Below, piece by piece: positions 6,383 through 31,459 of a stretch of 64,000 bases of DNA. Made by a program: the position numbers and the translations under genes. Origin of the DNA: a virus. Within the stretch, counting starts at the first letter, position 1, and the number at the start of each line of letters is the position of its first letter. The stretch is taken from positions 11,761 through 75,760 of IMG/VR virus record IMGVR_UViG_3300037493_002747. One strand, 5' to 3'. The notes below the pieces were generated by a model. That model saw nothing but the letters and a program-made list of their open reading frames with translations. It had not been told where the DNA came from and made no database searches.

Positions 6383-6794
6383 GGGGACGAGTGGTTTCGA
6401 CGAGTGTTATTGAAACTGGTCGACATGCCGAGGACACAGGTGGGCCTCGTAAATCATCCTGTAAAAAAACAACTGCCAACACTTTTGGCAAGGTGATTCG
6501 TGGTTTCTTTGGAGTGGCTGCTGAGGCTACTCCGATGCTTGCCGCTGCCTAAACAGGCACACCTCCAAAACTCCGGAGTTTCTATGACAACCGGATGAGG
6601 ATCAAAGAGAATAGATGACGGTCTGCAAAGACAGGCGATGCCGGGAATGAGACGCACCGGGGCGGATAGTCGAAGACATCCCTGAAAGAAGGGATAGACC
6701 AAGTCCGTGGTCGAGAAACATCGTGACGAAGCATGTGTATGTTCAGTTGATTTATTATTCGGACAGGGGGTTCGACTCCCCCTCGTCTCCACCA
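6383..6794 (+). ncRNA. ssrA: tmRNA; tag ANTFGKVIRGFFGVAAEATPMLAAA encoded at 6475-6552
   Basis: 5' GGGGACG and 3' CGTCTCC-ACCA form an acceptor stem with G3-U; TTCGAC near the 5' end; T-arm GGGGG-TTCGACT-CCCCC; tag frame ends LAAA-stop. Confidence 0.95.
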
Positions 6795-6828
6795 TTTTCA
6801 GAGATAATGAGGAAAGTTTGAAAAAGTG

Positions 6829-6858
6829 TTGAAAACTTACTCGTTGTCGGAGTATAGT
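6829..6858 (+). promoter_or_regulatory. sigma70-like promoter (TTGAAA-18-TATAGT)
   Basis: Near-consensus hexamers just upstream of the first Y-RNA candidate. Confidence 0.45.
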
Positions 6859-6872
6859 GATTTGTGAACGAA

Positions 6873-6954
6873 GTCAGGCTCCTTCAGGACTGGGTTACTT
6901 CATTACAAAAGCGAAAAAATCTCGGCGGTCTATGAGGACCGAAATTGAGATGAC
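6873..6954 (+). ncRNA. candidate Y RNA (Ro60-associated), copy 1
   Basis: Shares the CCTTCAG..GGGTTACTTC..GAAAAA core and a bulged-stem fold with 7082-7146; near the Ro60 gene. Confidence 0.45.
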
Positions 6955-7081
6955 GATCTGCAAAGACAGAGTGGAATTCCGGGAAGACGGAATGGAGGCG
7001 TGGGAAGACACGCAAATGACAGCTCGGAAAGACGGCTTACCTAGGACGAATATCGGAGTTTGATGGAGTTCTTGAGTTTTT

Positions 7082-7146
7082 GCTTGATACCTTCAGTTTG
7101 GGGTTACTTCTTGGTGAAAAACCCCCAAACGATTATTGGTGTCGGC
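7082..7146 (+). ncRNA. candidate Y RNA (Ro60-associated), copy 2
   Basis: GATACC/GGTGTC stem, TTCA internal loop, GTTTGGGG/CCCCAAAC stem and a TTACTTC-containing apex; upstream of Ro60. Confidence 0.5.
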
Positions 7147-7154
7147 TATATTAT

Positions 7155-7231
7155 TGCGGGGTAGAGCAGCCCGGTAGCTTATCAGGCTCATAACCTGAAG
7201 GTCGCTGGTTCAAATCCAGCCCCCGCAACCA
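7155..7231 (+). tRNA. tRNA-Met(CAT), initiator-like
   Basis: 77-nt cloverleaf close to bacterial tRNA-fMet; anticodon loop CTCATAA; encoded CCA. Confidence 0.95.
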
Positions 7232-7236
7232 ATAAA

Positions 7237-7274
7237 GGCCGGACATCAATAAAAGGATGTTCGGCTTTTTCTTT
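7237..7274 (+). terminator. Rho-independent terminator after the tRNA
   Basis: GGCCGGACATC/GATGTTCGGCT stem followed by TTTTCTTT. Confidence 0.7.
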
Positions 7275-7380
7275 GTATCGAATCGTGTAGGTTCAATGTT
7301 CTGTGTGGAACATTGGGAATAAGGGTGCCGAAAGGCACAAAATTGGTGGTAGAGATATCACCTTCAAGGAGGTAAGAGAA

Positions 7381-9135
7381 GTGAATAAGGTAAAGAAGGT
7401 CGCAAGGAGTAGGGCTTCGGTAGCAAGTCTGCCGAGCAACGCAAAGGCCGCATCGGTAAACCGGGCGGGCGGAGTGGCATTCGAGGTAAATGATCCGGCA
7501 TTGAAGTTGATCACCATGACTGGTGGGTCTTTCTTCGCCGAGCCGAGGTTCTATAACGCAGAGGCATGTGTACCTAAGCGTGGGACTGGCGGTAAGTTCG
7601 AGAAGCTGGCAGCGAGGCTAGAGATCGTGGATGGCAAGCTGAAGGGCTTTGTCACCTGTGATGAGCTTCCTGAGACGGCTCGTGAGGTTATCGCAACGGC
7701 TATCGATGTCGCCAAGGGTAAGACCCCGGAGGACATGCTGGCAATCGCCAACTGGCTTCGTAATGAGATGAACATCCGGATGACCCCGCAGATTTTGCTG
7801 GTGTTGGCATCTCAGATGGATGGGACTAAGTCACTGGTTCGGAAGTATGCGACTCACATCGTGAAGCGTCCGGATGAGGTTAAGACCTGTCTGTTGACTC
7901 ATCGTTTTCTGTTCGGGCTGAAGAATCTCCCGAATGGCCTAGCGAGTGGATTGGCTGATGCTACGAGTAAGTTCGGTGAGCGTGGGTTGATGAAGTACGA
8001 CGACTCTGGCTTTCCGACTTGGAAGGACGTTCTTTGCTGGCTTCCGCGTAAGGCTGGATGGCCGCTGAGTGCTGAGGTCGCCAAGTATTTCATCACCGGC
8101 AAGATTGATGACCCGGCTAAGACTCCGATCATCGCGGCTCGTAAGGAGTTGGTGAAGAAGACTGTGTTCGATACCGAGGCTCGTGACCTGGCAAAGAAGT
8201 CCCAAGTCAACTGGGAGGTCTTGCTGTCTCAGTTCGGTAAGGAGAAGAACAAGGTGTGGTCGTTTCTGATCGACAACGGTCTGATTGGCTACATGGCTCT
8301 GCTCCGTAATCTGAAGAACATCTTGGAGGCGAAGGTTTCCAAGGGTGTCATTCAGAAGGTATCGGATAAGCTCTCGAACAAGGACGAGGTTGCCAAGTCA
8401 AAGCAGCTTCCGTTCAGGTTCCTGTCGGCAAAGACGGTATTGGATACTATGTCTAGTGGTTTCGATCTTGCGGACTACTCGGAGGTCGTGGCGGCTATTG
8501 AGTTGGCGGCAAATGAGGCATGTGCCAATATCCCGGTAATGTCGGGTGAGACCATGGTGTTTGCAGACAATTCTGGTTCGATGACGAGTGCAAAATTGTC
8601 GGAGAAGTCGGCACGGAACTGTCGTGATGCTGCAAATATGCTGTCTGGTATCGCCGCCAAGGTATGTGAGAGGCCGTACCTGTTCGCATTTGGATCGAGT
8701 CTTCAGGAGATTCGTTTTGCCAAGACGGATACCGTAATGGGTATCTGTGACAAGGTAAAGCGATCAGGGGACGGTGGTTCTACGAATGGTCACCTGTGCA
8801 TTGAGCATTTGATCAAGTCTGGGAAGACTCCGGCACGGGTTATCATCCTGACGGACTGTCAGATGTGGAATGATAACAGTAACGGTGGTGGTCAGCCGTT
8901 TGCGAATGCATGGGCGAAGTACCGGAAGTCAAGTAAGGCTGCGGCGGAGACTTGGCTTCATATCGTTCACCTTTCGGGATACGGGGATAGTCCAGTGGAT
9001 GTGGGAGAGAGGGTGAATCAGGTCTCTGGGTTCTCAGAGAAGGTATTCACATCGATCCTCACTGTCGAGGGAGTTATGGGATCTACTCCACTCCCTACGG
9101 TGGAGCAGGTAAGGAATGGGTGGACGGTGAAATAG
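7381..9135 (+). CDS. Ro60/Rsr-like RNA-binding protein (TROVE + vWA domains)
   Basis: NxAGG.AF, GYMALLRNL, KQLPFRFLSA, MIDAS DNSGSM and IILTD motifs; RBS AAGGAGGT at 7366-7373 before GTG. Confidence 0.9.
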   Translation: MNKVKKVARSRASVASLPSNAKAASVNRAGGVAFEVNDPALKLITMTGGSFFAEPRFYNAEACVPKRGTGGKFEKLAARLEIVDGKLKGFVTCDELPETAREVIATAIDVAKGKTPEDMLAIANWLRNEMNIRMTPQILLVLASQMDGTKSLVRKYATHIVKRPDEVKTCLLTHRFLFGLKNLPNGLASGLADATSKFGERGLMKYDDSGFPTWKDVLCWLPRKAGWPLSAEVAKYFITGKIDDPAKTPIIAARKELVKKTVFDTEARDLAKKSQVNWEVLLSQFGKEKNKVWSFLIDNGLIGYMALLRNLKNILEAKVSKGVIQKVSDKLSNKDEVAKSKQLPFRFLSAKTVLDTMSSGFDLADYSEVVAAIELAANEACANIPVMSGETMVFADNSGSMTSAKLSEKSARNCRDAANMLSGIAAKVCERPYLFAFGSSLQEIRFAKTDTVMGICDKVKRSGDGGSTNGHLCIEHLIKSGKTPARVIILTDCQMWNDNSNGGGQPFANAWAKYRKSSKAAAETWLHIVHLSGYGDSPVDVGERVNQVSGFSEKVFTSILTVEGVMGSTPLPTVEQVRNGWTVK

Positions 9136-11498: not shown

Positions 11499-11794
11499 TC
11501 TTCCCGTTTCAGTGTCAAAAATGTAGTAAGAGTTTTGATGAGGAGTTCCCGATAGGTAAAGCACCTCGCGTGACTCCTTGTCCTCATTGCAAGGGTAATG
11601 GCAAACGCATTTACGATGGAATGTGCGTTGCTGTTAAAATTGGAGGGGCATTTTGTCATTCGTCAACCTTTGGCGAACAGATGAAGGCCCGGAATATGCA
11701 GGCAGCGCAACGGATGAAGGGGCGTAAGGCCCCGGTACGACTAGCCGCAATGGATCATGGCGGTGGTGACGTACGTGAGGTGAAAGCAAAGTGA
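11495..11794 (+). CDS. FmdB-family zinc-ribbon protein
   Basis: F.CQKC...F.......CPHC pattern. Confidence 0.75.
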
Positions 11795-12546
11795 TGATAT
11801 GGACGGCAAGCAAAACCTTCTTTCGAGATTTGACAGGGCATCATTACGGGATGCTTGCCGTCCTGTCTTTACATAGCAAGGTGGGTAATTTCAGAAAGTG
11901 GAATTGCCGATGTGATTGTGGAACGGAATGCGTTAAGTATGGACATCAGATTCGGGCCGGACAAGTAGTATCCTGTGGTTGTGAACAGAAAAGAAAAGCG
12001 AAAGAGACCGGCAATAATAATGCGGTTGATTTAACAGGCAGGAGATTTGGAAGGCTTGTTGTTATTGGAAGGAGTGGGAGTAATAAGCATCAGAAGGCAA
12101 GATGGAAGTGTAAATGTGATTGTGGTAAGGAGAAGTTGCTTGTTGCTGGATCATTGATTTCTGGAAATTCAGAGTCTTGCGGTTGTATTCAGAAAGAGAC
12201 GATGCACGAGATTCGATGGAATCCAAATCTTTCACAGGAAGATCGAGAGACGAATCGAAATCGAGAGATTACCATCCCTGGACTCCATCTATGGCGTAAG
12301 GCGGTTTACGAACGGGACGGGTATCGGTGTGTCGTTTGTGGTGGAAGTAAGAGTGGTCGTTTTGTTGCTCATCACATTGCCTCTTGGGCTGCGAATAAAG
12401 ATGTGCGGTTAGATGTAGAGAATGGGGTTACATCATGTGTTGATTGTCACAAGGAATTCCATTCGAGATATGGTTGGGGCGGAAACACTCTCGGACAATG
12501 GTCCGAGTTTTTGACTATAAAAAGTCGGATCGGAATCGCAGTATGA
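11791..12546 (+). CDS. free-standing HNH homing endonuclease with duplicated DLTG..FG.L DNA-binding repeats
   Basis: Two DLTG...W.C.CDCG...SCGC units, then CVVC..HH....NGVTSCVDCH. Confidence 0.85.
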   Translation: MMIWTASKTFFRDLTGHHYGMLAVLSLHSKVGNFRKWNCRCDCGTECVKYGHQIRAGQVVSCGCEQKRKAKETGNNNAVDLTGRRFGRLVVIGRSGSNKHQKARWKCKCDCGKEKLLVAGSLISGNSESCGCIQKETMHEIRWNPNLSQEDRETNRNREITIPGLHLWRKAVYERDGYRCVVCGGSKSGRFVAHHIASWAANKDVRLDVENGVTSCVDCHKEFHSRYGWGGNTLGQWSEFLTIKSRIGIAV

Positions 12547-12870: not shown

Positions 12871-13509
12871 ATGGATAAGATTTGTACAAGATGTGGTCAG
12901 GCCAAATCGGATGATTGTTTTGGGAGAGATAAGAATCGAAAAGATGGCTTGAATTCTTGGTGCCGTGAGTGTGTGAAGGAAACTTCTAAGGCTCATTATG
13001 CGGCGAATACTGAAAAACGTCGGGAAGCTAGTTTAGCCATCTATCATCGTAACGCTCAGGACGAAGGATTTCGGGACTCTAGGAATGCTCGTCAGCGGGT
13101 GTATTCAAAGGACTATATGCGGCGTCCTCGTACTCGCCAGTTGGCGAGGGGGTGGATGAAGCGGTACATGTCCAAGATCAAGAATAGAATATCCAAACAG
13201 TTGTCGTATCAGGTCTGGTACTCGTTGCGTTTGGTACTGGACAAGTCGAGGAGTAAGAACGGGAAGCATTGGCCCGAATTGGTAGGATGGACTGTCGAGC
13301 AGTTGATGACTCATTTGGAGTCGAAATTTCAGTCGGGGATGACCTGGGACAATTATGGTGAGTGGCACATAGATCATGTGACTCCGAGAAGTTGGTTTCC
13401 GATTAAGGTTGTCGGGGATGAGGCATTTCGGTCTTGTTGGAGGTTGGAAAATCTTCAACCTATGTGGGCAAGGGATAATTCGGCAAAGGGCAATAGGTTT
13501 TCTGGGTAG
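12871..13509 (+). CDS. HNH endonuclease with N-terminal zinc finger
   Basis: CTRC...CREC; WDNYGEWHIDH..P....NLQPMW..DN..K.N. Confidence 0.85.
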   Translation: MDKICTRCGQAKSDDCFGRDKNRKDGLNSWCRECVKETSKAHYAANTEKRREASLAIYHRNAQDEGFRDSRNARQRVYSKDYMRRPRTRQLARGWMKRYMSKIKNRISKQLSYQVWYSLRLVLDKSRSKNGKHWPELVGWTVEQLMTHLESKFQSGMTWDNYGEWHIDHVTPRSWFPIKVVGDEAFRSCWRLENLQPMWARDNSAKGNRFSG

Positions 13510-19774: not shown

Positions 19775-19873
19775 TCCCGTCATTATTCCTTTATATTCTA
19801 TCATGTATAGAGTGGCAGGAGTTAGATCGGAAAGAAACCGAGATGTTGCTGAGGAACAAAGGAGGATACTAAT

Positions 19874-21212
19874 ATGGGTATGGGTTAAGATTAGCCCATC
19901 TTAAATCTTCTCTGATTGACTCGGAAGGCCAAGAGTGGGCTGACGAGGCGGAAGGCGAAAGCCACCGTGAACGACTGAGCGAGAAGACCGTCTACGGACG
20001 GATGCAACAGTCTGCTCTCCCGCAATAACTCAAGATGAAACGGGAGAGGGAAATCCGAAGAGATTTCCCCGCCATCGAAAGATGGTCAGTAGGTCGCAAG
20101 ACTGAAGTAACAGCAATAGGTATCAAGGCTACGCGAAATTTTACAAGACTGGTCCATCAACTGATCCACTGGTTGTGTTGGCAACTGGCGCAAGCGTCAA
20201 TCTGGTGTTGGAGCCAATTATGTCAACGGCAGTGTGGGGTGCTGGCTGGTATAACGCGGCAGATGCTGCGCACTATGCTGACAACGCGGTGCGTTATGAG
20301 GGAAGTATTGATCTTGAACTTCAGATGGGTGCTTCAGGAAACTTCTGGAATTTCTTGCATCAGTTCATTGTGACAAATCGGGCATATCCTAGGTCATTGG
20401 AAATCAGTCCGGATGGAGCACACGTTTACAAGTATCTGACGACTGGTGCCTATGATGCCAACTATGACACGAAGGGTGCATGGTGTCGTTCGGCTAACTT
20501 CTCGACATCGGAAGGTTCGTTTGTTACTTGCTCTCTTGGTGTTGTGGCTATTTTCAGAACTGAGGGCGATCCAGCAGGTGGAACAAGCTATTCGAGTTAC
20601 AGTTACATCAAGCAGGTCAAGGGCGTAATTGCGTCTGACTGCACGGTGTTGTCTAAAACGAATCCGTTAAACCCGTCTGGTAACAATGTTGATCCAATCC
20701 CTTACTGGAGGTCTAATGCTCAGTTGGGTGTTGGTACATATCCGGGGCCTTTTGGAAGTGTGACACTGCCTCAGACTGGAACGGAGACGGTCGATTGGAG
20801 TATTGATGTCTCTAACAATGAGAAGATTCTGTACACTTGCTCTGGCAGTCGTCTGCCTCGTGCGGTGTTGATGGGTGCTATGAGTGTTGATGGAAACGTG
20901 ACTCTCTATCACCCGAATGGTGTGTTCGACCCGATTCTTGGACCTTCTGGTACAGGAACAATTACTTCTCCGTACTCCAGAGCTGAGAATACATGGTTCC
21001 AAGTGGGTATCAACTATGGTTCGGGAACGGCATACATCGAAATTCCAGCAGCCCTTATCAGCAGTGATACATACAACATTCAGGGAGCCGATTCGATTAC
21101 GAATCGTGCGTTCTCGATCAAGGGGTTGGGTGGAAGGTGCGACGGAACGACGACACTTCCTCCATGTATCATCTCTGACTACGCTGGTGCATTGCCAACT
21201 CCTCCAACCTGA
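19874..21212 (+). CDS. tail tube-like protein, spliced: join(19874..19885,20121..21212), 367 aa
   Basis: RBS AAGGAGG; the spliced N-terminus MGMGYQGYAKF matches paralogue MALGYEGYVKI. Confidence 0.8.
19886..20120 (+). mobile_element. group I self-splicing intron (235 nt, no homing endonuclease)
   Basis: P1 ATGGGT/GCCCAT with a U-G pair at the 5' splice site; P3 TCTTCTC/GAGAAGA; P7 GACTG/CAGTC; P8 with UACG loop; terminal G at 20120; removal restores the frame. Confidence 0.9.
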
Positions 21213-21224
21213 TATGGGGGCAAG

Positions 21225-22112
21225 ATGGCTCTTGGATATGAGGGGTACGTCAAAATTGGCGACAAGTATGCTCTTGGGACGGGAACAGCCGTTCCAAGGG
21301 CACGTACCCGCATAACTTCTCAGGGTGCTTACGGCGGCGAGATAAATACACCTGTTGATGAAATAGGGCTATGGGGTCCTAGAGTATATGACTGGGAGGT
21401 CTTTGACGGATCAGTGAATTTCGAGATTACCAAGGATATGTTCTCCTTGCTCAAGGCGTGGGTACTGGACAGGGATAGTCAGAAGGATATCCTGTTTTCG
21501 ACCCGGAAGGACAATGAACAAAAGTTCGTTGATACATTCTGGAATTCCATATCGATTTCAGCCGCTGAAGGTTCCTTATTGGATGGTTCTCTTGGGTTCG
21601 TGGCTATGGATCGGGACACTTACTCCTATGGGGCGCAAGGCATAGATAGTTATCCTGGGAATGTGAAAGGCAAGGGGTTGTTATGTACGTTGGCGACGGG
21701 AATGCCAGCTCCATTAAATGTTAGTGGTGAAAATTACAATCCGATTCCTTCATGGTATTCTAAGATTACACTGGGTGTAGAGGTATACGACTTTCTTGCT
21801 TGGACGTTGAATTTCTCACAAGACGTGGTGAAATTTTTTGCTTGTACCGGGGTACAAGGGCCACAGGCACCTGCGTATGTTGGGGTGGGGCCGATGTCGG
21901 TAACATTTGGTGGGTCTTGGATGTGGTTAGACAAAGATGCTCAAACCAGTTTCCCGGCTGATGATGTTACCGATTTGAAGGTAGAGGTGGCGGATACGAG
22001 TATGAGTTTCAAGACTTTGGAGTTACAGAGTATTTCTGATGATGTACAATCTATGGATTCGACAACGCCGGTACAGATGGAGTATGCTATCTACGAGTTG
22101 CAGTCTACATAG
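21225..22112 (+). CDS. tail tube-like protein (paralogue 2)
   Basis: Shares LGY.G, GS..FE, S..EGS....LG and NP.P.W with 19874-21212. Confidence 0.65.
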   Translation: MALGYEGYVKIGDKYALGTGTAVPRARTRITSQGAYGGEINTPVDEIGLWGPRVYDWEVFDGSVNFEITKDMFSLLKAWVLDRDSQKDILFSTRKDNEQKFVDTFWNSISISAAEGSLLDGSLGFVAMDRDTYSYGAQGIDSYPGNVKGKGLLCTLATGMPAPLNVSGENYNPIPSWYSKITLGVEVYDFLAWTLNFSQDVVKFFACTGVQGPQAPAYVGVGPMSVTFGGSWMWLDKDAQTSFPADDVTDLKVEVADTSMSFKTLELQSISDDVQSMDSTTPVQMEYAIYELQST

Positions 22113-22168
22113 TCGAAGACGAATTCGGGCGAAAGCTCGGTAGTATGGAAAAACCGAAGATGAAAGAT

Positions 22169-22224
22169 GGGCGCAGATGCACGGGTGTTTTTTGATACCA
22201 TTGGTGTACTGCGTTTTTTGTTTT
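22169..22224 (+). terminator. long hairpin plus U-tract (possible terminator/attenuator)
   Basis: GGCGCAG/CTGCGTT with inner GGTGTT/GATACC stem, followed by TTTTGTTTT. Confidence 0.4.
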
Positions 22225-22238
22225 AATGGAGACGTTTT

Positions 22239-22730
22239 ATGGCGATAGTACAAGCAAAACAGCAAGATAGTCAGAAGACTGCCGGTACAGAACAGTCTCG
22301 TGTCGACGAGAGATTGATGAAGCCGGGAAAGTTTGAAATCACCAAGGAAACGACTTTTACGGTTATGATTCATGCTAAGGAGAAGGATGGTCGCTGGATC
22401 ATAATGAATGGTCCGGGTAAGGGTATTGAGAGCAATAGCATAATCTTCAGGATGTGGACTTACGACGAGATGATAGAAATGCGCAAAATGGCGACAAACT
22501 ATGATTCTCAAAAGAGAGTTCACATGATTGATAACGATGTCTTGAACAGACTAAAGATACAGAGGCTTATGGTGTCTTGGACATTCGATACTGACAACCC
22601 GAGACTAAGGATACAGCATGTGAATGGAGTAATGACAGATGAGAGCTGGAAGGCTTTTGCGAGTCTACAGCCAAACATTTCTTCATACATAATTGACGAG
22701 ATCAACAAGGTTTATGAATTCAACGGCTGA
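22239..22730 (+). CDS. putative tail assembly chaperone
   Basis: F..WTYDE...R...L.SW pattern; between tube and tape measure genes. Confidence 0.55.
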   Translation: MAIVQAKQQDSQKTAGTEQSRVDERLMKPGKFEITKETTFTVMIHAKEKDGRWIIMNGPGKGIESNSIIFRMWTYDEMIEMRKMATNYDSQKRVHMIDNDVLNRLKIQRLMVSWTFDTDNPRLRIQHVNGVMTDESWKAFASLQPNISSYIIDEINKVYEFNG

Positions 22731-23472
22731 ACAGAATGCTCGCAAGAATTGTGCGGAGTTGTATGACCCTAACCGTGTTATGGTTCGGGTTAGGACTTCA
22801 CGACGTTATGGATGTTGTTTACCGGACGAGGGTGGGAATGAAGAGCATGTTGCTGTTTTCGCTACGATGACATTTGGAGATAACTATGCCATCGATAAGG
22901 CGATAACCTATGAGGTAGAGGTTGGAGAAGCGTTCGGTACTGGCAGGAAGATCAAGGCACATGTAACAGACATCAATGAGTACAAGCGATTGGTAGTAAA
23001 AAAGAACCTTCTTTCGTGGAGTTTGGATGTGCCGATTGAGAGAGATCCGTCAGGATGGATGACGCCAGAAAGTTATGCGCGGGTATCATCTGTTCCAGGG
23101 CCTCTTATGGAAGCATTTGTTAGGAAGTACGAGGAATCGGTGGAGGTATCAGACGAAGAGGAAGAGCGCATATCGAGACAGTGTGCGGTATTATTCTCGA
23201 AGACCTCACATGGCGTATCAGATGCTTGTGAGGCTGTTAGCAGATTTTGTACGTTGGGAAATTTCTCTGAGAAGTTTGGTATCAACAGGGAGGCTTTGCC
23301 AAGGATGCCTTACAAGGAGTTCTTGCTGTTGAAGATTATGATCGCAAAGGAGTCAGATTCGTTGAAGTCTTCACAGCCTAAGACAAGCCCTAGTAGTGTC
23401 ATAGGAGCTGGTGGAAGGGCAAAGCCTAGTCGTGGGATAAGGATTCCGATGCCAGGATCGGATGGTGGATAA
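22714..23472 (+). CDS. putative tail assembly chaperone (long form)
   Basis: TF.D...L.SWSL core plus an EKFG....L..MPY.EF tail. Confidence 0.55.
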   Translation: MNSTAEQNARKNCAELYDPNRVMVRVRTSRRYGCCLPDEGGNEEHVAVFATMTFGDNYAIDKAITYEVEVGEAFGTGRKIKAHVTDINEYKRLVVKKNLLSWSLDVPIERDPSGWMTPESYARVSSVPGPLMEAFVRKYEESVEVSDEEEERISRQCAVLFSKTSHGVSDACEAVSRFCTLGNFSEKFGINREALPRMPYKEFLLLKIMIAKESDSLKSSQPKTSPSSVIGAGGRAKPSRGIRIPMPGSDGG

Positions 23473-24260
23473 TGATATCTGTAAAGAAAAAGTTGGGTTA
23501 TGGTGGTTCGGCAACTATCGGTACCCACCAAGTGTTGATAACATCTGGTGGGTTTGAAAAGGCAGTTTCCATACCATACCTCAACATGATTAACACTCCA
23601 CCGGATACTACATTCGCTGGCAGGGTAAAGCACGCTGATGGAACTAATGGTTATACTGGTTCGTTGTCATTTGATGTTTACGATGATACACTATCTCTTT
23701 TCGAGACTACGGACGGTCTTTTGGAGCGGTATTACGAGTTCGATATTGGGATTAATGACGGAGAGAATGATTGGAAGATGGAGGCTTGTAAGCTGACTTC
23801 GATGACGATTTCAGGATCGGCGGGTGGGTTGGTGAGTGCTCAGATTTCATTTTTGGCCAAGAGTGGGAAGGTTGCGGGATCGACGACGAATGATTTTATC
23901 AGGGATGATGCTCCTCTAGGGTATTGGTATACTGGAACAGGTGATGCTAATGACAAGGTGAAGGATTGGAGTCTGGCGATGACTCAAGAGGCAAGCATAG
24001 TCTACAAGAATGAAGACAGTATGGAACCGGCCTATATTAAGGTGGGACTGGTGATATATGTTCTTTCGATAACATCATTTACTGAAATAACGACACCAAG
24101 TCAGATAAAGATATCTACAAAGAATTTCACGTTGACGGGAGACACAACGGGAATGGGGTACGCTCCTGGCGGACTCACAGATCTAGGGACGTATAGTTAT
24201 ACGTTCGAGACAAGTGCTCAGAGTAGTGATGCGGTATCGGATGCTCTCGTGATAACATAA
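23472..24260 (+). CDS. tail tube-like protein (paralogue 3)
   Basis: LGYGG, GSLSFD, ISGSAGGLVSAQISF and DWSL motifs. Confidence 0.6.
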   Translation: MISVKKKLGYGGSATIGTHQVLITSGGFEKAVSIPYLNMINTPPDTTFAGRVKHADGTNGYTGSLSFDVYDDTLSLFETTDGLLERYYEFDIGINDGENDWKMEACKLTSMTISGSAGGLVSAQISFLAKSGKVAGSTTNDFIRDDAPLGYWYTGTGDANDKVKDWSLAMTQEASIVYKNEDSMEPAYIKVGLVIYVLSITSFTEITTPSQIKISTKNFTLTGDTTGMGYAPGGLTDLGTYSYTFETSAQSSDAVSDALVIT

Positions 24261-24913: not shown

Positions 24914-27900
24914 ATGCCCTTTAGTACAGAAGAACTTGCCAAGAAGTTTGGCGATAGTGCCGAAGACGTTAAGAAGAGCCTTGAGGGAATGCTCGGGGCT
25001 GCTGACGACGTTGACAAGGTATTTGAAAAGATGACAGAGCGACAGGAAGCTGCCGCTCAGATTCAGGACAAGTTTGCGAAGGCTTTGGCTTCATCGTCAA
25101 AGTCTTTGACTGGCATTGGGCATTCTGGGATATCGGCGGCACGGGGAATAAAGACCATTGATTCTGTATCTAGGTCTGCTGCATCATCTTTGGGTTCTCT
25201 GGGTATTGGAGCAGTCTCCGCTGTCGCCGGGTTCAAGGCATTATCATCTGGTGCATCATCTTTCTCGTCAGATATTGAGAACACTGAGAAAAGCATTGCT
25301 GGTCTCGTTAAGGGTATAGGAGGTCTGGAAGCGAAACTCGGTGGCCTCAAGGCGGCATCTGTCTCGGTTGATGTTGTGATTGGAAGTCTTTCAGCATTGG
25401 ATGACTTTGAGAAAAGAATCAAGGCGTTGCCTCAGAACGTGTCTGTAAATGTTTCTACTGGAGCTGCGGCTAAAACCGGGGCAGGAGCGGCATCGGCATC
25501 GGCAGGAGCGGCATCGGCGAAAGCAATGGCTAATGCGGCGGCTAAAGCAATGGCATCCAGAAAAACTCCTGCCTCAGCGGGAACATTGAGTGCGGCGATG
25601 TGGGGTGGACCTAATGCTGCCAAGAAAGCGGGGAGACTTTCCGGTGAATATGGAGGAAAGGCATTCGCAGAAAATTATGCTGAACAAGTAGCTAAGAACA
25701 TTCGGAGTAAGTCGATCAAGTCAATGAAGGATAAGATGACTTTGATGGCAGACGATACCGAGAAAATTAAGACTCCTGAAGGGAAGAAGAAGTATGTCGA
25801 ATTGGCGGTAAAGATTGGCAAAAAGGGAGAAGTGTCGGAAATTTTGGACGAGCTGAGTGACAATCAATCTAAGCTCTTCAAAAGGAATGTTGGCAAGATG
25901 GGCATGGAAAAGGCGATAGACAGTCTTATCGCCAAAACTCCAATTTTGGCTCTGCGTGTGAAGAAGGCGATGTCGGAAGCGGCGGAGGCTGCGGAAGAGG
26001 CAATTTCTCCATTTAAGAGACTTGAGGATCAAGTCAACAGTGAAGCAAAGACTTTCAAGGAGTTCATTTCACAAAATGTTGCTAAGGGTGGGGTGGAGTT
26101 CGGAGAGTTCGCAGGAGGATTGACGAAGAGTGCAACAGGGATGTTTGCGGTTGGACTCGCTGCTGCATTTGTGGCAACGAAGATTTCTGAAATGGCTGAG
26201 AAATATGCGAATTACGCTTCTGAACTTGCCAAATATCGGGTAGAGACATCCGCATTGGAAGATACGATTGCCGGATTGGGTAAAAACGGGTTAGAGCCGT
26301 TACGTAAAGAACTTGGTCTTACTCGTGACCAAGCTGCTGATTTCTACCAAGTTCTCAAGACTGGTGTGAATGAGCTTGGAATGAGTCCAGGGAAAATCAT
26401 GGAGGTTTCCAAGGCACTGAGTGATACTTTTGGTGGAGACCAAACAGCAAGGTTGAAGCAGTATGTTGATTTGCTCAAGGAGATTCCAACTATTGATGCG
26501 GACTTGAGCATTACGGCCAGCATGGATGATCAGGCAGCATCGATTTACGCTTTGGCCAAAAGTGGTAAGATGGATGTGGTAATGGATTTACAGTCTGCTG
26601 GATTGTTTGGAGGGAAACAGGAAAGGAAAGAAGGAGCGGACCTCGCTGATTCCAATCAAGCAGTTGCAAAAAACACAGAGGCCATTAAGGATTTCTTAAC
26701 TGGATCATTATTTGGAACATGGACTCCGTATCTTGTTGCATTGACGCAAGGTGTTTCTGCTCTTGTTGCAGCATTTGTGTCAGGATTAGCGATATGGGGA
26801 GGAATGAAAGCAGTACAGGGCGTATTCAAAACAGCTAGTATTGCTACGATGTGGGCAACATGTAAAGCGATGGTTGCTGCAATACTTAGTTCTAAATCTG
26901 GCGGTAGGGGAAGAACTGGCAAGGGAGCTGTCAAGGGGGCTGTCAAGGGGGCATCGACGACAGCGGCCAAGGCAGCGGCCAAGGCAGTAGGGAGTAAGGC
27001 TGCGGCTACGGTGGCTACAACAGCTTCTAAAAAGGTTGCGACGACAGCAGCTAAATCCGCCATATCACTTTCAAAATTTGGAGGTATCGCAGCTAAAATT
27101 GGTCCAAAATTGTTAGGAATTGGTCTTGCAGTAGTTGGAGTCGAGTTGGCTTGTGGTATGGCAGCAGACAAACTGGAAGAGACTGGTAAAACAGCAGCAG
27201 CGGCTGGAACTAGGATCGCTGGCAGTGCGGCAAGTATCGCAGGATTTGCACTTACCGGGGCTACTATTGGTGGGGCTATTGGGCTACTCGGAGGTCCCTT
27301 GGCGGCAGTTACTGCCACGGCTGGAGCAGTAGTTGGTGCATTGGTTGGATTGGCAGTTGAGGCTAAAACTCTGTATAAGTCATTCAAGACTTTGGGTGTG
27401 TCGGCTTGGGAATATATTAAGAAATTCGGGTCGAGCAAGAAGTCTGAACCGACAACAGCATTGGGAAAGGCAGCAATTGAATTAAACGCGCAACTAATAG
27501 AAGAGCATGCGAAGATGGCTAAGTCTGGGATGGCCCTAGAACAGTCTATGAACAGATTGAAGGCGGCTGTTAATAGTGCCAAGTTTGAATTCCTAGAGTT
27601 GAGTGCAAGACTTTCTAAGATTCAACTAAAAAACATTGGAGAAATTGGCGGTTCAATGGCGGGATTCACAAGTGCGATGCAGAAAGGTGAAGATGCCGCC
27701 AGGAAGATATTTAACGAGAAAAAGGCAGTAAATGAAGCAGAGCGTAAGAGAATCATGGGTAGTACGGATATGCAACCGGACCAGCGTCAATCTGCATATG
27801 ATACTGTTCGAGAAGCAGAATTGAAGGCAGCCAATGATTTCGCAGAGGCATTGAGTGATCTTGCGACTACCTTGTATCAGACTCCTGAACTCATACAGAA

Positions 27901-30900
27901 TGGATTGAAGCGTGAAATCGCAGGGACTACTCTTGGGCAAGCACAAGATACTGGAGCTTTCACAAGAGAATACAAGGATGTTGCTGAATCTAAAGATATT
28001 GGTTTGGCGAAAGAAGCCGTAACGAAGACTCAAGAAGCCATGGTGAAATCATCAAAAATGGTTAGTGATTCTGTCAAAGCATATGAGGAAGCAAAGGTTG
28101 CGGCAGTTGCTAGTGGCAATGATTTGCTCAAAAAATATGATGAAGAACTCCTTAATGATAAGATGGATGGGGCCAAGAGATTGGCCATGCAAGAGGAAAG
28201 GAACAGACTGAAGGCACTTCAGGATTCTAAGGCATTCGGTACGGATGCTTCTAAAGAGTTGGTTGCAGCAAAAGGGAGACAGGGAAAGAAGAAAGCTGAA
28301 ATTGAAATTCTGGAAGATAAACGAAAGGGAGAGTTTGAAATAAAGCCGATGGCTGATGCAGCTAGTTCTAAGAAAGAACTTGATATCTATGGCAAGCAGA
28401 AGAAGAAGCTGGAAGAAAAACGTGATATAAAACAAAAAGAACTTACAGATGTTGGTGGTAGCGATGAAAAATCGGAGGAGGCTCTTAAGGAAGTAGACAA
28501 GTTGAAAGGTGAGATAAAAGAGTTGAATGAGAAGATGACTCCTCTCATGAAAACAGTTTCCGAAGTTTCTTCTGATTTAAGTATAAAGATAAAAGCAATA
28601 AAGCCGGATTTGCCTACCGAGAAGATAACAGAAGCCGTAGAAGCGATTATGAACTCAGGCGGCGACATTGACAAAATGAGTAAGGCTCTAGAAGGATTCG
28701 GTCTTGCGGAGGTAGTAAAAGAAAGTATCAACAAGACAAAAGAGATTACTAAGGAGATAGGTGCTCTGAAAGACCAGAAGGGAGTTATTGACCAGGTTGT
28801 TGTACAGCATGAGTCGGTAGTCTCTAAAGAAGATGGGGTTACAACGACACTGAAGGCGCAACTTGAGGCTGTTAAGAAGCATAGTGATGCTGTCAATGAA
28901 TTAGTAAATTCTTACAAAAGATCTCTTGAGGGTGATTACAAAGAACTTCGCGTTAAGAGAGAGTCAGTTACTGCAACACAAGAGCAGGTAGCAATAGCCG
29001 GGCTTCATGGTTCTGCAACTGCGGAGTTGGCAAAACTTGGAGAGGAAGAAGGTAATTTAGCCAGAGAAGAATATGCTTATGCCAAGTCCAGTGTTAAACA
29101 GTTAGAAGGCATAATTGCAGAACATCAGAAAGCTGTTGATTTAGCAAAACAAGTATCAGATGCGAACCCGAAAGATTTGTCTTTGAAGAAAGTATATGAG
29201 AGGGCATTAATCGAAATGGCAGGATATGAGACTCTGGCTTCTAATGCTAAAGATAGTTCGGAGAGAGCTATTCGCAAGTTGAAATTGGCAGGAGAGGGTG
29301 TGGATGAAGGATTGCAAGGATTTGCAAAGAGTATTACTGGAATCAATCTGACGAATATATCAGATTTGGCTAGTACACTGGCAGAGAGTGCTGAGTATAC
29401 AGGAGATGTAGGAAAGGCTTCAGCGGAAAGTTTCAGGTTAGCTAAATATGCGTCTGATGAATGGTTGAAGAATGAGAAGGAGATTATCAAGGCGAGGATT
29501 GCTACTGCTAAAGCCAATATTGAAGCTGAAGCTGAAATTGTAAAACAGGATGCTCTGACCAAGAACAAGGATATGTCTCCGGAAGCAGCAGAGGCATTGA
29601 AGCAGCAGACGATAGCAGATATGAAGTCGGCGGTAGCGAATAAGGAGAAACTTGCGTATGCCCAGGCGGAACTCAAACACAAGAAAGATGTTGTAGGAGC
29701 CGCAAAGAGGTCCAAGGAACTGAAGGAGGGTGAGCTTAATATTCAGCAGGGTTTGATTGATGACGCTATGTCGTTTGCGTCGGAGTTCGGCGGGTCTTTC
29801 GCATCAATCAATGCATTGCAGAATTTGAGTGTTGGTGTTGCCAGACAACAGTTGGATGTTGCCAAGGAATTCAGAGACAATATTCAGCAGGCATTCGAGG
29901 CTGCGGCAGGTGATGCTAATAAGCAGGCTGAGGTCGGCAAGGCATTGTTTCAGGCTCAAGCGGATGTGGCTACGCAGACTCTTAATCTTCGCAGGAAGGA
30001 GCTTGGCGTTCAGAAGAATATGATGGAGCAAATGCTTGGAGGTGTGTTTGGAGAGATGAGGAGCAATTTTGGAGCACGTCGTCAGATGGGTTCGGACGTG
30101 TCGATGATGGGCATAAATGCTACTCGTATGAAGTCAGCTTCTGGAATGTATGTCAATACTCCTGGTGGTAAGCCCGGAACAATCGAAGAACGGCGTAATA
30201 GACGGATGTTGGGTGGGGCTGGTGGGGCCGGTCCTTTGGATGAATTGGCGAAGATGGGTGGGCCGATGGCTGAGGTTGCCAAGGCGATGAACAAGTCTCC
30301 TTCACGAGAACAGCAGGCGAAGTTGTTGGAGGAAGCAAATGCTACTAGTAAGAACACGAAGGACGTGGCGAACTCAACTAGTCGAGGAGATCAGCCGGGA
30401 TCATTTTACACGCATGATACGACAGCAGAGGGATTACTTGGAGGTATTCTCGGGGTATTGAGGGAGCTTACGGTAGGCATGTTGGATTCAGCGTTTACAT
30501 CAAAATCAAAAGATGCAGGAGTAGTTGGAAAGAGATTGGACGATGTTATTGCTGGGGCAGCTAAGACAGCGGCATCGGTAAAGGCGACTACGACACAAAA
30601 AGAGGATACGACTGCCGGTGTAGAGACAATTAAGAAGAATTCTGAAAAGGTGGCTGGTCTGGAAGATGCTATAAGGATTCGGGAAAATGAGAATCCGATA
30701 GCAACAGGTGTTGAAGACCATAACAGGGTTCGGGCAGGCAGACCAATGACGGCAGATGGGGCCAATAAGGCATACATGGAGGCTTACCAGAAGTTTGGGG
30801 AAGGCTCTAAGGAAGTTGAAGCTGCAAGGAAGGACTATGAGATTGCTTCAAGCAATTCAGTGGAGGCGAATAAGGCATCAGTGGGTGAGAATAGGGCTAG

Positions 30901-31459
30901 CCCAGTTTCGGCTGCGAAAAAAGCCAGAAATATGTCTAAAATGGTTGGGATTGGTGGTCGTTCAAGTTTGATGGGTACAATGCTTGGTGGGATGAGGACT
31001 GGAATAAAAGAGATGGGTGGTTTGGGGAACACCAAAGAGATGAGTGGTTTGGGCAGCATGAAAGAGATGCGTGGTTTGAAGCCTCTTGGTGGTGTGACGA
31101 AGCAGGGTGGAAACACATCGGGTGGGGTTAAGACGGTTGGCGGTGCGACTGCAACTGGACTTGGCATGACTAAGGCGGGATATGCAGCGAATACCGCAGG
31201 TGGGGATACAATGGCTAGTAGGGCTGCGGGAACGGAAGTAGCACCACCGTCAGTTGGTATGACAGCAGCAAGGGCTCCTGGTGGTTCTACAGGAGGTGGC
31301 GGGATAGAGGCTGGGTCGAGTATCACTGTAAAAGGAGAGATGATGGTCAAGTTTGACAACAAAATGTTCCAGCAGCAGATGACGGCTGTAGTATTGACCA
31401 TCATGAACAATAGTCAGGCGCAGAAGCAGATTCAAAACGCCGTCTTGAAGAAGTCTTGA
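24914..31459 (+). CDS. tail tape measure protein (2181 aa)
   Basis: Very long A/G/K/E-rich coiled-coil ORF with glycine-zipper hydrophobic segments, following tube and chaperone genes. Confidence 0.85.
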   Translation: MPFSTEELAKKFGDSAEDVKKSLEGMLGAADDVDKVFEKMTERQEAAAQIQDKFAKALASSSKSLTGIGHSGISAARGIKTIDSVSRSAASSLGSLGIGAVSAVAGFKALSSGASSFSSDIENTEKSIAGLVKGIGGLEAKLGGLKAASVSVDVVIGSLSALDDFEKRIKALPQNVSVNVSTGAAAKTGAGAASASAGAASAKAMANAAAKAMASRKTPASAGTLSAAMWGGPNAAKKAGRLSGEYGGKAFAENYAEQVAKNIRSKSIKSMKDKMTLMADDTEKIKTPEGKKKYVELAVKIGKKGEVSEILDELSDNQSKLFKRNVGKMGMEKAIDSLIAKTPILALRVKKAMSEAAEAAEEAISPFKRLEDQVNSEAKTFKEFISQNVAKGGVEFGEFAGGLTKSATGMFAVGLAAAFVATKISEMAEKYANYASELAKYRVETSALEDTIAGLGKNGLEPLRKELGLTRDQAADFYQVLKTGVNELGMSPGKIMEVSKALSDTFGGDQTARLKQYVDLLKEIPTIDADLSITASMDDQAASIYALAKSGKMDVVMDLQSAGLFGGKQERKEGADLADSNQAVAKNTEAIKDFLTGSLFGTWTPYLVALTQGVSALVAAFVSGLAIWGGMKAVQGVFKTASIATMWATCKAMVAAILSSKSGGRGRTGKGAVKGAVKGASTTAAKAAAKAVGSKAAATVATTASKKVATTAAKSAISLSKFGGIAAKIGPKLLGIGLAVVGVELACGMAADKLEETGKTAAAAGTRIAGSAASIAGFALTGATIGGAIGLLGGPLAAVTATAGAVVGALVGLAVEAKTLYKSFKTLGVSAWEYIKKFGSSKKSEPTTALGKAAIELNAQLIEEHAKMAKSGMALEQSMNRLKAAVNSAKFEFLELSARLSKIQLKNIGEIGGSMAGFTSAMQKGEDAARKIFNEKKAVNEAERKRIMGSTDMQPDQRQSAYDTVREAELKAANDFAEALSDLATTLYQTPELIQNGLKREIAGTTLGQAQDTGAFTREYKDVAESKDIGLAKEAVTKTQEAMVKSSKMVSDSVKAYEEAKVAAVASGNDLLKKYDEELLNDKMDGAKRLAMQEERNRLKALQDSKAFGTDASKELVAAKGRQGKKKAEIEILEDKRKGEFEIKPMADAASSKKELDIYGKQKKKLEEKRDIKQKELTDVGGSDEKSEEALKEVDKLKGEIKELNEKMTPLMKTVSEVSSDLSIKIKAIKPDLPTEKITEAVEAIMNSGGDIDKMSKALEGFGLAEVVKESINKTKEITKEIGALKDQKGVIDQVVVQHESVVSKEDGVTTTLKAQLEAVKKHSDAVNELVNSYKRSLEGDYKELRVKRESVTATQEQVAIAGLHGSATAELAKLGEEEGNLAREEYAYAKSSVKQLEGIIAEHQKAVDLAKQVSDANPKDLSLKKVYERALIEMAGYETLASNAKDSSERAIRKLKLAGEGVDEGLQGFAKSITGINLTNISDLASTLAESAEYTGDVGKASAESFRLAKYASDEWLKNEKEIIKARIATAKANIEAEAEIVKQDALTKNKDMSPEAAEALKQQTIADMKSAVANKEKLAYAQAELKHKKDVVGAAKRSKELKEGELNIQQGLIDDAMSFASEFGGSFASINALQNLSVGVARQQLDVAKEFRDNIQQAFEAAAGDANKQAEVGKALFQAQADVATQTLNLRRKELGVQKNMMEQMLGGVFGEMRSNFGARRQMGSDVSMMGINATRMKSASGMYVNTPGGKPGTIEERRNRRMLGGAGGAGPLDELAKMGGPMAEVAKAMNKSPSREQQAKLLEEANATSKNTKDVANSTSRGDQPGSFYTHDTTAEGLLGGILGVLRELTVGMLDSAFTSKSKDAGVVGKRLDDVIAGAAKTAASVKATTTQKEDTTAGVETIKKNSEKVAGLEDAIRIRENENPIATGVEDHNRVRAGRPMTADGANKAYMEAYQKFGEGSKEVEAARKDYEIASSNSVEANKASVGENRASPVSAAKKARNMSKMVGIGGRSSLMGTMLGGMRTGIKEMGGLGNTKEMSGLGSMKEMRGLKPLGGVTKQGGNTSGGVKTVGGATATGLGMTKAGYAANTAGGDTMASRAAGTEVAPPSVGMTAARAPGGSTGGGGIEAGSSITVKGEMMVKFDNKMFQQQMTAVVLTIMNNSQAQKQIQNAVLKKS

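Follow-up and report, generated by a model that had tools for sequence, protein, structure and literature searches.

A group I intron predicted behind the fourth codon of a phage tail-tube-fold gene, and its relatives at the same site

The start of a tail-tube-fold gene has been analysed in a window, i.e., the whole stretch of viral DNA under study, of 64,000 nucleotides (nt) from IMG/VR record IMGVR_UViG_3300037493_002747 (positions 11,761 to 75,760 of the record). It is concluded with high confidence that positions 19886–20120 are a group I intron without an open reading frame (ORF) in the first of three tail-tube-fold genes. Coordinates given without a locus name are those of the window. 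The locus consists of the following features.

19860..19866, + strand: Shine–Dalgarno (SD) sequence AGGAGGA, read directly, 7 nt 5′ of the start codon
19874..19885, + strand: exon 1, ATG GGT ATG GGT = Met-Gly-Met-Gly, 12 nt of coding sequence, assigned from the sequence and the N-termini of homologues
19886..20120, + strand: group I intron, 235 nt, without an ORF; its exact removal leaves a locus co-linear with intron-less loci, and it scores 114.9 bits with a covariance model
20121..21212, + strand: exon 2 of the tail-tube-fold gene, beginning with TAT = Tyr5 and including the stop codon

TAA at 19886–19888, the first codon of the intron, stands in frame right after exon 1, and G20120, the last intron base, lies directly 5′ of TAT CAA GGC TAC GCG AAA TTT. 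Excision of 19886–20120 yields MGMG-YQGYAKF. An original prediction, made from the letters of the window, had placed a strong ribosome-binding site, ATG GGT ATG GGT and an in-frame TAA here, and all of them were found at 19860–19888. It had drawn the element as 19861–20130; the element does lie there, although the intron proper is confined to 19886–20120. The frame of ORF 20175..21212 stays open back to 20106, and the open part 5′ of 20175 encodes YQGYAKFYKTGPSTDPLVV with neither a start codon nor a ribosome-binding site: no ATG, GTG or TTG was found upstream of 20175 in the open frame from 20106, and inspection of the sequence revealed no SD upstream of 20175. Because this upstream frame is open and has no start codon, ORF callers begin the gene at GTG 20175, a mis-start which the original prediction had pointed out correctly. 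The same shortened gene call is carried by many database homologues.

The exon junction is supported by alleles which are uninterrupted. A protein search with exon 2 gave more than 200 homologues, and among the best 120 of them the N-terminus is MGMGYQG[FY] in 74 and MGYQG in 7, while the MGMG start is absent from 39. The predicted spliced N-terminus is that conserved in the tube protein family. Protein P0002 (98% identical) has 367 residues, which is exactly exon 2 (363 residues) plus MGMG. The DNA of contig L128/L003 (80% protein identity) carries the SD, the spacer and ATGGGTATGGGT as in the window, followed directly by TATCAGGG, and the uninterrupted start is also seen at eleven more loci in IMG/VR. 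The search for intron-free homologues which had been proposed thus returned 12 uninterrupted loci, and the context of the intron-less site in relatives reads ATGGGTATGGGTTATCAAGG. As TA opens both the intron and exon 2, co-linearity with intron-less alleles by itself would fit the 235-nt insert in three positions. The sole placement having U at position −1 paired to G, a terminal G and the right frame is 19885/19886 ... 20120/20121 (a slash marks a splice junction here and below). The terminal G (omega G) also ends all four related tube-gene introns described below. As an observation from the homologue set, proteins P0047 and P0094 open with the translated 3′ end of an intron (KVTE or ATEND, from AAAGTAACAGA...), fused in frame to QG[FY]; judged by sequence, N-termini of this type are a mis-annotation signature of intron-bearing alleles.

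The RNA of the insert can be folded into the helices listed here.

19880..19899, + strand: P1 hairpin, AUGGGU 19880–19885 with the guide GCCCAU 19894–19899; U19885 opposite G19894 at the 5′ splice site
19906..19912, + strand: P3 5′ strand UCUUCUC, pairing with 19981–19987; compensatory changes in 7/7 pairs, 98.6% of alignment cells paired
19920..19947, + strand: P4 (CUCG 19920–23 with CGAG 19944–47) around P5 (19929–31 with 19936–38); P4 100% paired, with C-G to U-A changes
19948..19968, + strand: P6 (GCGG..GGC GAAA GCC.CCGU); compensatory changes in 5/7 pairs, 98.6% paired
19973..19977, + strand: P7 5′ strand GACUG, within conserved GUGAACGACUG, pairing with 20008–20012 and crossing P3 as a pseudoknot; 100% paired
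19981..19987, + strand: P3 3′ strand GAGAAGA, from the same core alignment
19988..20001, + strand: P8 hairpin CCGUC-UACG-GACGG; compensatory changes in 5/5 pairs
20002..20012, + strand: J8/7 (AUGCAA), then P7 3′ strand CAGUC, from the core alignment
20015..20103, + strand: 3′ domain with P9 (20015–22 with 20041–48) and P9.1 (20049–55 with 20062–68, loop CGAAGA), from the alignment
3′ domain continued, + strand: P9.2 (20071–76 with 20081–86, GAAA loop) and P9.3 (20092–95 with 20100–03), the latter assigned by eye only

The 5′ strand of P1 is the second AUG-GGU of exon 1. An invariant UGAUUGAC stands directly 5′ of P4 and a conserved GAAGUAACAG directly 3′ of P9.3. The topology is that of a group I core, with P3 and P7 crossing as a pseudoknot, P4–P6 between P3 and P7, and P8 between P3′ and P7′. 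A 261-nt stretch was found to fold more stably than 200/200 shuffles (z = −3.9).

Covariation was examined in 21 members aligned by MAFFT, with no structure imposed on the alignment. In the core, 93.3% of the cells are standard pairs and double-sided changes occur in 21/31 pairs; the covariation score and the other observed values were reached by 0/500 shuffles, while slid controls were 36–50% paired. P7 is invariant save its last pair, which is A-U in 11 sequences and G-C in 10. In the 3′ domain (P9, P9.1, P9.2), 91.7% of the cells are paired and compensatory changes occur in 13/21 pairs, and neither the paired percentage, the double-change counts nor the covariation score was reached by any shuffle. 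A P1 of at least 6 base pairs, closed by U·G and lying at the same distance from P3, was found in 61% of 70 distinct members vs 7% of shuffled controls. Its guide sequence co-varies with the host exon, as seen in AATCCGT with GCGGATT in ribonucleotide reductase and AGACGCT with GGCGTCT in head genes. GAACGACUR and AUGCRAYAGUCUG, which cover P7 together with J6/7 and J8/7, show little or no variation and are similar to the T4 introns. From these features the element reads as a group I intron with an IA-like core.

A search of ~50,000 phage genomes by blastn returned one match, with 70% identity to exactly 19903–20113, in the metagenomic podovirus MW202674, where the element splits a P22-type coat gene in two. 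The family was enlarged by scanning IMG/VR contigs for the invariant TGATTGACTNGGAAG and then with a covariance model of the core (R2), which gave 73 matches at E ≤ 0.001 in 100 sources, often 2–4 per locus. The window copy (E = 7e-28) is among the five best of the 73 members and is the one copy of the family in the whole 75.7-kb record. Upstream exons of other members encode ribonucleotide reductase, three distinct major-head-protein families and a tape-measure protein; the family occupies mainly head genes, and its members interrupt other genes in the middle of codons. The original prediction had stated that phage group I introns sit mostly in DNA-metabolism genes. This is roughly right for phages at large, but capsid and tail introns are documented (PMC3706429) and the present family departs from it. 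A scan of bacterial and archaeal genomes gave only 6 matches, all on contigs of metagenome-assembled genomes, and these offer no pointer to the host.

Two further patterns were noted in the family. Loci L027, L046, L015, L054, L036, L007, L083 and L092 hold 2–4 intron copies within 1–3 kb and, where tested, the clustered copies lie in major head protein genes (phrog_1357, 283, 9953); such heavily split capsid genes are probably mis-annotated in viral metagenomes. L043, L051, L016, L024, L061 and L070 have in common the P1 AATCCGT with GCGGATT after exons ending ...NP, and the exons of L043 and L051 match ribonucleotide reductase (phrog_367). In ribonucleotide reductase the insertion lies between Asn-Pro and Cys, behind AATCCGT, and from the sequences this motif looks like a recurrent insertion site.

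Taken together, the placement of a group I intron after codon 4 is upheld by the intron-less MGMGYQG orthologues, by the homologous introns in other genes and by the covariation of the core helices. The details of the original prediction were borne out as well, including a P1 formed by the start region with U-G at the splice site (ATGGGT with GCCCAT), canonical P3, P7 and P8 with a terminal G, the absence of any ORF from the 235 nt, and the predicted product MGMG-YQGYAKF.

The gene itself had been called tail-tube-like, and the AlphaFold model of exon 2 (predicted local distance difference test, pLDDT, 73; predicted template modelling score, pTM, 0.76) agrees with that in matching the P74-26 and T5 pb6 tubes at E = 1e-12 to 1e-9. 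By Foldseek the P74-26 tube (8ed0) was matched with E = 1.5e-12 and the T5 pb6 and DT57C tubes with 1e-10 to 1e-9, at a template modelling score of ~0.5. PF18906 matches 8/22 members of the tube family, and a PDB sequence search with the family profile gave no match. The downstream paralogues at 21225–22112 and 23472–24260 match the same family weakly. A product with a tail-tube fold of the duplicated-domain type of T5 pb6 and P74-26 is supported by the model. In the same model, residues 3–10 and 14–33 of exon 2 are β-strands, and a protein begun at 20175 (residue 19) would have a truncated fold because the N-terminal segment holds its first β-strands. On the modelled structure, then, the gene would need splicing for a normal protein.

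Three consecutive tail-tube-fold paralogues (20121–24260) are followed by an ORF of 2181 amino acids (aa; 24914–31459), presumably the tape measure, and the best fold matches, to tubes of the siphophages T5 and P74-26, suggest a long non-contractile tail. A transfer-messenger RNA (117 bits), a tRNA-Met(CAT) and a gene for a Ro60/TROVE-vWA protein lie together at 6383–9135, 5′ of the structural module.

The same site was compared in 16 IMG/VR loci with tube homologues (15 distinct contigs). The core model matches exactly the 4 intron-bearing tube loci among them and 0/12 intron-less ones (11 distinct contigs).

Window: exon 1 of 12 nt, ...GGT/TAT, guide GCCCAT, phase 0; no upstream nuclease gene
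L138: exon 1 of 12 nt, ...GGT/TAC, guide GCCCAT, phase 0; LAGLIDADG_2 gene (226 aa) directly upstream
L133: exon 1 of 13 nt, ...GGNT/AT, guide G(N)CCCAT, phase 1; gene for a MerR-type helix-turn-helix (HTH) plus LAGLIDADG_3 (255 aa) upstream
L141: exon 1 of 13 nt, ...GGNT/AT, guide G(N)CCCAT, phase 1; gene for a MerR-type HTH plus LAGLIDADG_3 (271 aa) upstream
L134 (=L005): exon 1 of 13 nt, ...GGNT/AT, guide G(N)CCCAT, phase 1; no upstream nuclease gene

Relative to the phase-0 site, the phase-1 introns are shifted downstream by 1 nt, and their P3 is a different one. In all five tube-gene introns the in-frame stop is codon 5, and a stop in frame soon after the 5′ splice site is a trait of phage group I introns (PMC3984707). 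In L133, L138 and L141 the nuclease ORF stands as an insertion after the upstream gene and before the tube gene, and such an upstream ORF was found in 0/12 intron-less loci; the intergenic stretch of the window, 19775–19873, is co-linear with that of intron-less L126. L138 and L141 have exons 96% identical in DNA and carry different nucleases and introns that are 63% identical and 1 nt apart. The window intron is closest to that of L138, with 76% identity vs 64% for the exons, and the nearest relatives of the window, L126 and L128, are without the intron, as are ~2/3 of the homologues.

An ORF-less intron with a free-standing nuclease is known as "collaborative homing" (PMC3984707, PMC6083498, PMC2790892), and the patchy distribution together with free-standing nucleases beside an ORF-less intron gives this pattern. 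It is observed in L133, L138 and L141; in the window itself no nuclease gene lies beside the intron, so that this part of the pattern is missing there. Judged from these sequences, the intron most likely reached the site by homing. This would account simply for the odd location, as the nuclease gene of the relatives sits in the intergenic space and its likely target is the conserved start of the tube gene. In the original prediction, mobility had been ascribed to a nuclease acting in trans, such as the HNH genes at 11.8–13.5 kb. The genes exist, as an HNH gene at 11791–12546 and an endonuclease VII-like gene at 12871–13509, 6–8 kb from the intron; nothing links them to the intron site, this candidate was rejected, and collaborative homing with LAGLIDADG genes upstream, as in the relatives, fits better.

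Some observations on these intergenic regions stand apart. The nuclease ORFs of L138 (541–1500) and L141 (453–1500) both begin MSL(V/I)AIGKFAE, as if one nuclease body had been replaced by the other. In L141 (453–1268) the LAGLIDADG ORF runs in another frame through exon 1 and P1 and ends with TAA just past the P3 5′ strand, which may be an intermediate toward an intron-encoded nuclease or incidental. ATGTATAGAGTGGCAGGAGTTAG at 19803–19825, intergenic and 5′ of the tube gene, is kept with one change in intron-less L126 and is a candidate late promoter or regulatory site.

The following course of events would be consistent with the above results. The precursor mRNA (pre-mRNA) would carry a ribosome-binding site, the start codon and three further codons in the 12-nt exon 1, whose last six bases AUGGGU would pair with the guide GCCCAU to form P1. 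The P3/P7 pseudoknot core with P4–P6, P8 and the four-hairpin P9 domain would bind guanosine, and two transesterifications would join GGU to UAU past the terminal G20120. The spliced mRNA would then encode MGMGYQGYAKF..., a tube protein of 367 residues, while unspliced RNA would give the tetrapeptide MGMG only, because TAA follows at once. As for its origin, relatives hold an intron and a free-standing LAGLIDADG gene at the same site, and the window lineage would have kept the intron without the nuclease. We infer from the sequence that the RNA splices, either by itself or assisted by protein.

Several observations weigh against this reading or limit it. The source is an uncultured metagenomic contig and splicing is here predicted from sequence. 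For some phage group I introns splicing is confined to infected cells (PMC11878797), so that self-splicing in vitro is no certainty. P10 is weak: GAUUA 19889–19893 can meet exon 2 UAUC by GAU with AUC or by UA with UA, giving 2–3 pairs in the window, so that the argument from P10 is weak here; L138 has 4 pairs (GGUA with UACC) and the phase-1 relatives GAU with AUC. P5 is the least certain helix, being 44% paired and poorly aligned by MAFFT. P2 and P7.1/P7.2 are absent: the guide and P3 are just 6 nt (CUUAAA) apart, and nothing stands between P3′ and P8. There is no clean fit to any classical subgroup without these helices, and for this reason the element is not filed under IA2 despite its IA2-like P7 elements. 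With the Rfam model RF00028, scans of the window, MW202674, 15 related loci and the record as a whole returned no match, whether the gathering score or E ≤ 10 was applied; the only other Rfam signal at E ≤ 10 for the element was a chance sR4 match (E = 1.1). The same RF00028 model detects the T4 introns at 105, 40 and 36 bits, and its miss here is a limit of the model and does not mean that the element lacks a defining feature. R2, in turn, picks up nothing in T4, and the family is therefore no close relative of the T4 introns. Finally, no LAGLIDADG homologue was found in the 75.7-kb record, which by estimate covers ~23% of the genome.

Among the rival explanations, the one that survives best accepts splicing and adds regulation to it: P1 would lie inside the initiation footprint, and a kinetic race between splicing and initiation, or a factor that shifts it late in infection, would set the output of tube protein. 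This is possible, although we consider it rather improbable. Its basis is the distance of only 6 nt from the start codon to the P1 5′ strand. A ribosome that is initiating covers the region of this strand. Since that strand lies within the covered region, ribosome binding and P1 formation are likely, on sequence grounds, to exclude one another. All five tube-gene introns keep SD-AUG-GGN-AUG-GGN followed by an immediate stop. Splicing of the T4 introns requires that the upstream exon be translated: the ribosome probably assists by covering exon sequence there, and the in-frame stop probably keeps it off the core (PMC3984707). With a 4-codon exon the covering role cannot apply, so that the relation must differ here. 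A Clostridioides difficile group I ribozyme that controls the arrangement of ribosome-binding site and start codon serves as an analogue (PMC3984707). Thermodynamic folding gave the first AUG an unpaired probability of 0.45 in the pre-mRNA vs 0.71 in the spliced mRNA, a modest change; the accessibility of the SD is the same, 0.56 before vs 0.60 after splicing. Against regulation it can also be said that homing into a conserved sequence beside an intergenic nuclease gene explains the site equally well, that the homologues without the intron, being the majority, do not need it for regulation, and that no ligand-binding or other sensor element is evident.

As long as nascent folds stop short of the P3 3′ strand, SD bases GGAGGAU (19861–19867) pair with AUCUUCU (19905–19911, in J1/3 and the P3 5′ strand), the unpaired probability of the SD being 0.20–0.26 before that point and ~0.6 after it. 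This pairing of the SD with the P3 5′ strand, and an extension of P1 onto the first AUG, were considered and taken as incidental; neither is kept in the phase-1 relatives.

A neutral passenger driven by homing is the default, and a real regulatory role is doubtful. The fullest form of the proposal holds that the tube gene start is a contested homing site for two lineages of intron plus LAGLIDADG gene 1 nt apart, and that the intron is a kinetic gate on the major tail protein, no mere passenger, with splicing and ribosome loading mutually exclusive; to this we would give still less credence, and we regard it as unlikely.

It is very improbable that 19886–20120 is a decayed, non-splicing intron or a structured leader other than an intron, with the gene a pseudogene or with a short tube protein made from GTG 20175 behind an MGMG leader peptide. 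The absence of an Rfam group I match would allow this, and the ORF from 20175 is long and intact. Nevertheless, the window copy stands in the top five of the 73 members with every helix intact, and the same RNA family splits other genes mid-codon. In the 54 nt directly before 20175 the frame reads the conserved YQGYAKFYKTGPS...VV, with no start codon, a conservation that a leader would lose; this N-terminal segment holds the first β-strands of the modelled fold, and there is no SD before 20175. A start at 20175, or a non-canonical start within 20106–20174, was rejected on the same grounds: a start codon and an SD are both missing, and the protein would be deprived of its conserved N-terminal segment.

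In programmed translational bypassing of the kind found in T4 gene 60, whose bypass gap is 50 nt, the ribosome would leave the RNA at GGU 19883–85, beside a UAA held in a hairpin, and resume at a GGU further downstream. In spite of a superficial likeness (a Gly take-off codon, an adjacent stop, a local hairpin and a GGU at 20119–20121) this reading can be dismissed by the frame, since after GGU 20119–21 reading resumes at 20122 while the tube codons start at 20121, and also by a gap of 235 nt which shows conserved group I architecture with covariation, and by the phase-1 relatives, where no in-frame landing copy exists for the last Gly codon (GGG, GGU or GGA).

The intron matters first for annotation. 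Gene callers mis-start the tube gene, and up to ~1/3 of the database homologues (39/120) are without the conserved start. As members of the family abound in phage genes for head, tail and ribonucleotide reductase and are unseen by the Rfam group I model, many split structural genes in viral metagenomes are probably mis-annotated. The 12-nt 5′ exon sets the initiation footprint on P1, which offers a natural test system for the interplay of translation and group I splicing with almost no upstream exon. The LAGLIDADG genes of the relatives beside an ORF-less intron, in two competing versions 1 nt apart, may be regarded as snapshots of the assembly of a mobile intron.

The nearest known systems are the introns of T4 td, nrdB and nrdD (sunY), of class IA2. 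Both are introns of phage protein genes with several P9 hairpins and with a stop codon soon past the 5′ splice site, and their cores are near-identical in AACGACUA (P7 5′ strand) and in AUAGUCUG(A)AC at the J8/7-P7-P9 junction; the P7 elements of the window family, AACGACUR and AUAGUCUGAAC, are nearly the same as the R and S elements of the three T4 introns. Unlike them, the window family lacks P2, P7.1/P7.2 and an internal endonuclease ORF, the window intron has only 235 nt, and its 5′ exon is 12 nt vs hundreds in T4. The models do not cross over either, R2 being blind to T4 and RF00028 seeing T4 and not the window family.

Group I-type introns in virion structural genes are also known from the cluster J mycobacteriophages, in the capsid gene of LittleE and in a tail gene of BAKA and Optimus (PMC3706429). 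The BAKA tail-gene intron has 265 bp and no ORF, its exon 1 ends in U and the intron in G, and splicing was demonstrated by reverse-transcription PCR (PMC3706429); cluster J genomes are rich in free-standing HNH genes (PMC3706429). These introns differ from the present one in lying within genes and not on the start codon, no sequence relation to them was found, and splicing is experimental there and predicted here.

Collaborative homing has been described for cyanophage S-PM2 psbA with F-CphI, for the DNA polymerase of T3/T7-like phages and for T4 mobE with nrdB (PMC3984707, PMC6083498, PMC2790892). In L133, L138 and L141 a free-standing nuclease gene likewise adjoins an ORF-less intron, and in similar phages both are present or both absent. 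The difference is that the LAGLIDADG proteins of the relatives come from two Pfam families, one with a MerR-type HTH, whereas the known cases are Endo VII-like or HNH; cleavage of the site in the relatives is putative, and the window has the intron and no nuclease.

In C. difficile a c-di-GMP-II (cyclic diguanylate) riboswitch is coupled to a group I ribozyme (PMC3984707). Both systems lie at the extreme 5′ end of the mRNA, and in both splicing decides, or here would decide, on a productive translation start. In the C. difficile system the 5′ splice site is switched by a ligand aptamer, and the ribosome-binding site comes near the start codon through splicing; in the window exon 1 already holds both of these, there is no sign of an aptamer, and splicing would join the start to the body of the ORF.

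Open-access papers and preprints yielded no report of a tail-tube gene intron at the start codon. Group I introns in phage capsid and tail genes, ORF-less introns and introns with free-standing nucleases are all documented (PMC3706429, PMC11878797, PMC3984707). The kind of element is well known and its position on the start codon is unusual, and what the present case adds to the known systems is this position in the initiation region, a widespread family invisible to Rfam, and, in relatives, the competition of two nuclease-intron pairs for one site.

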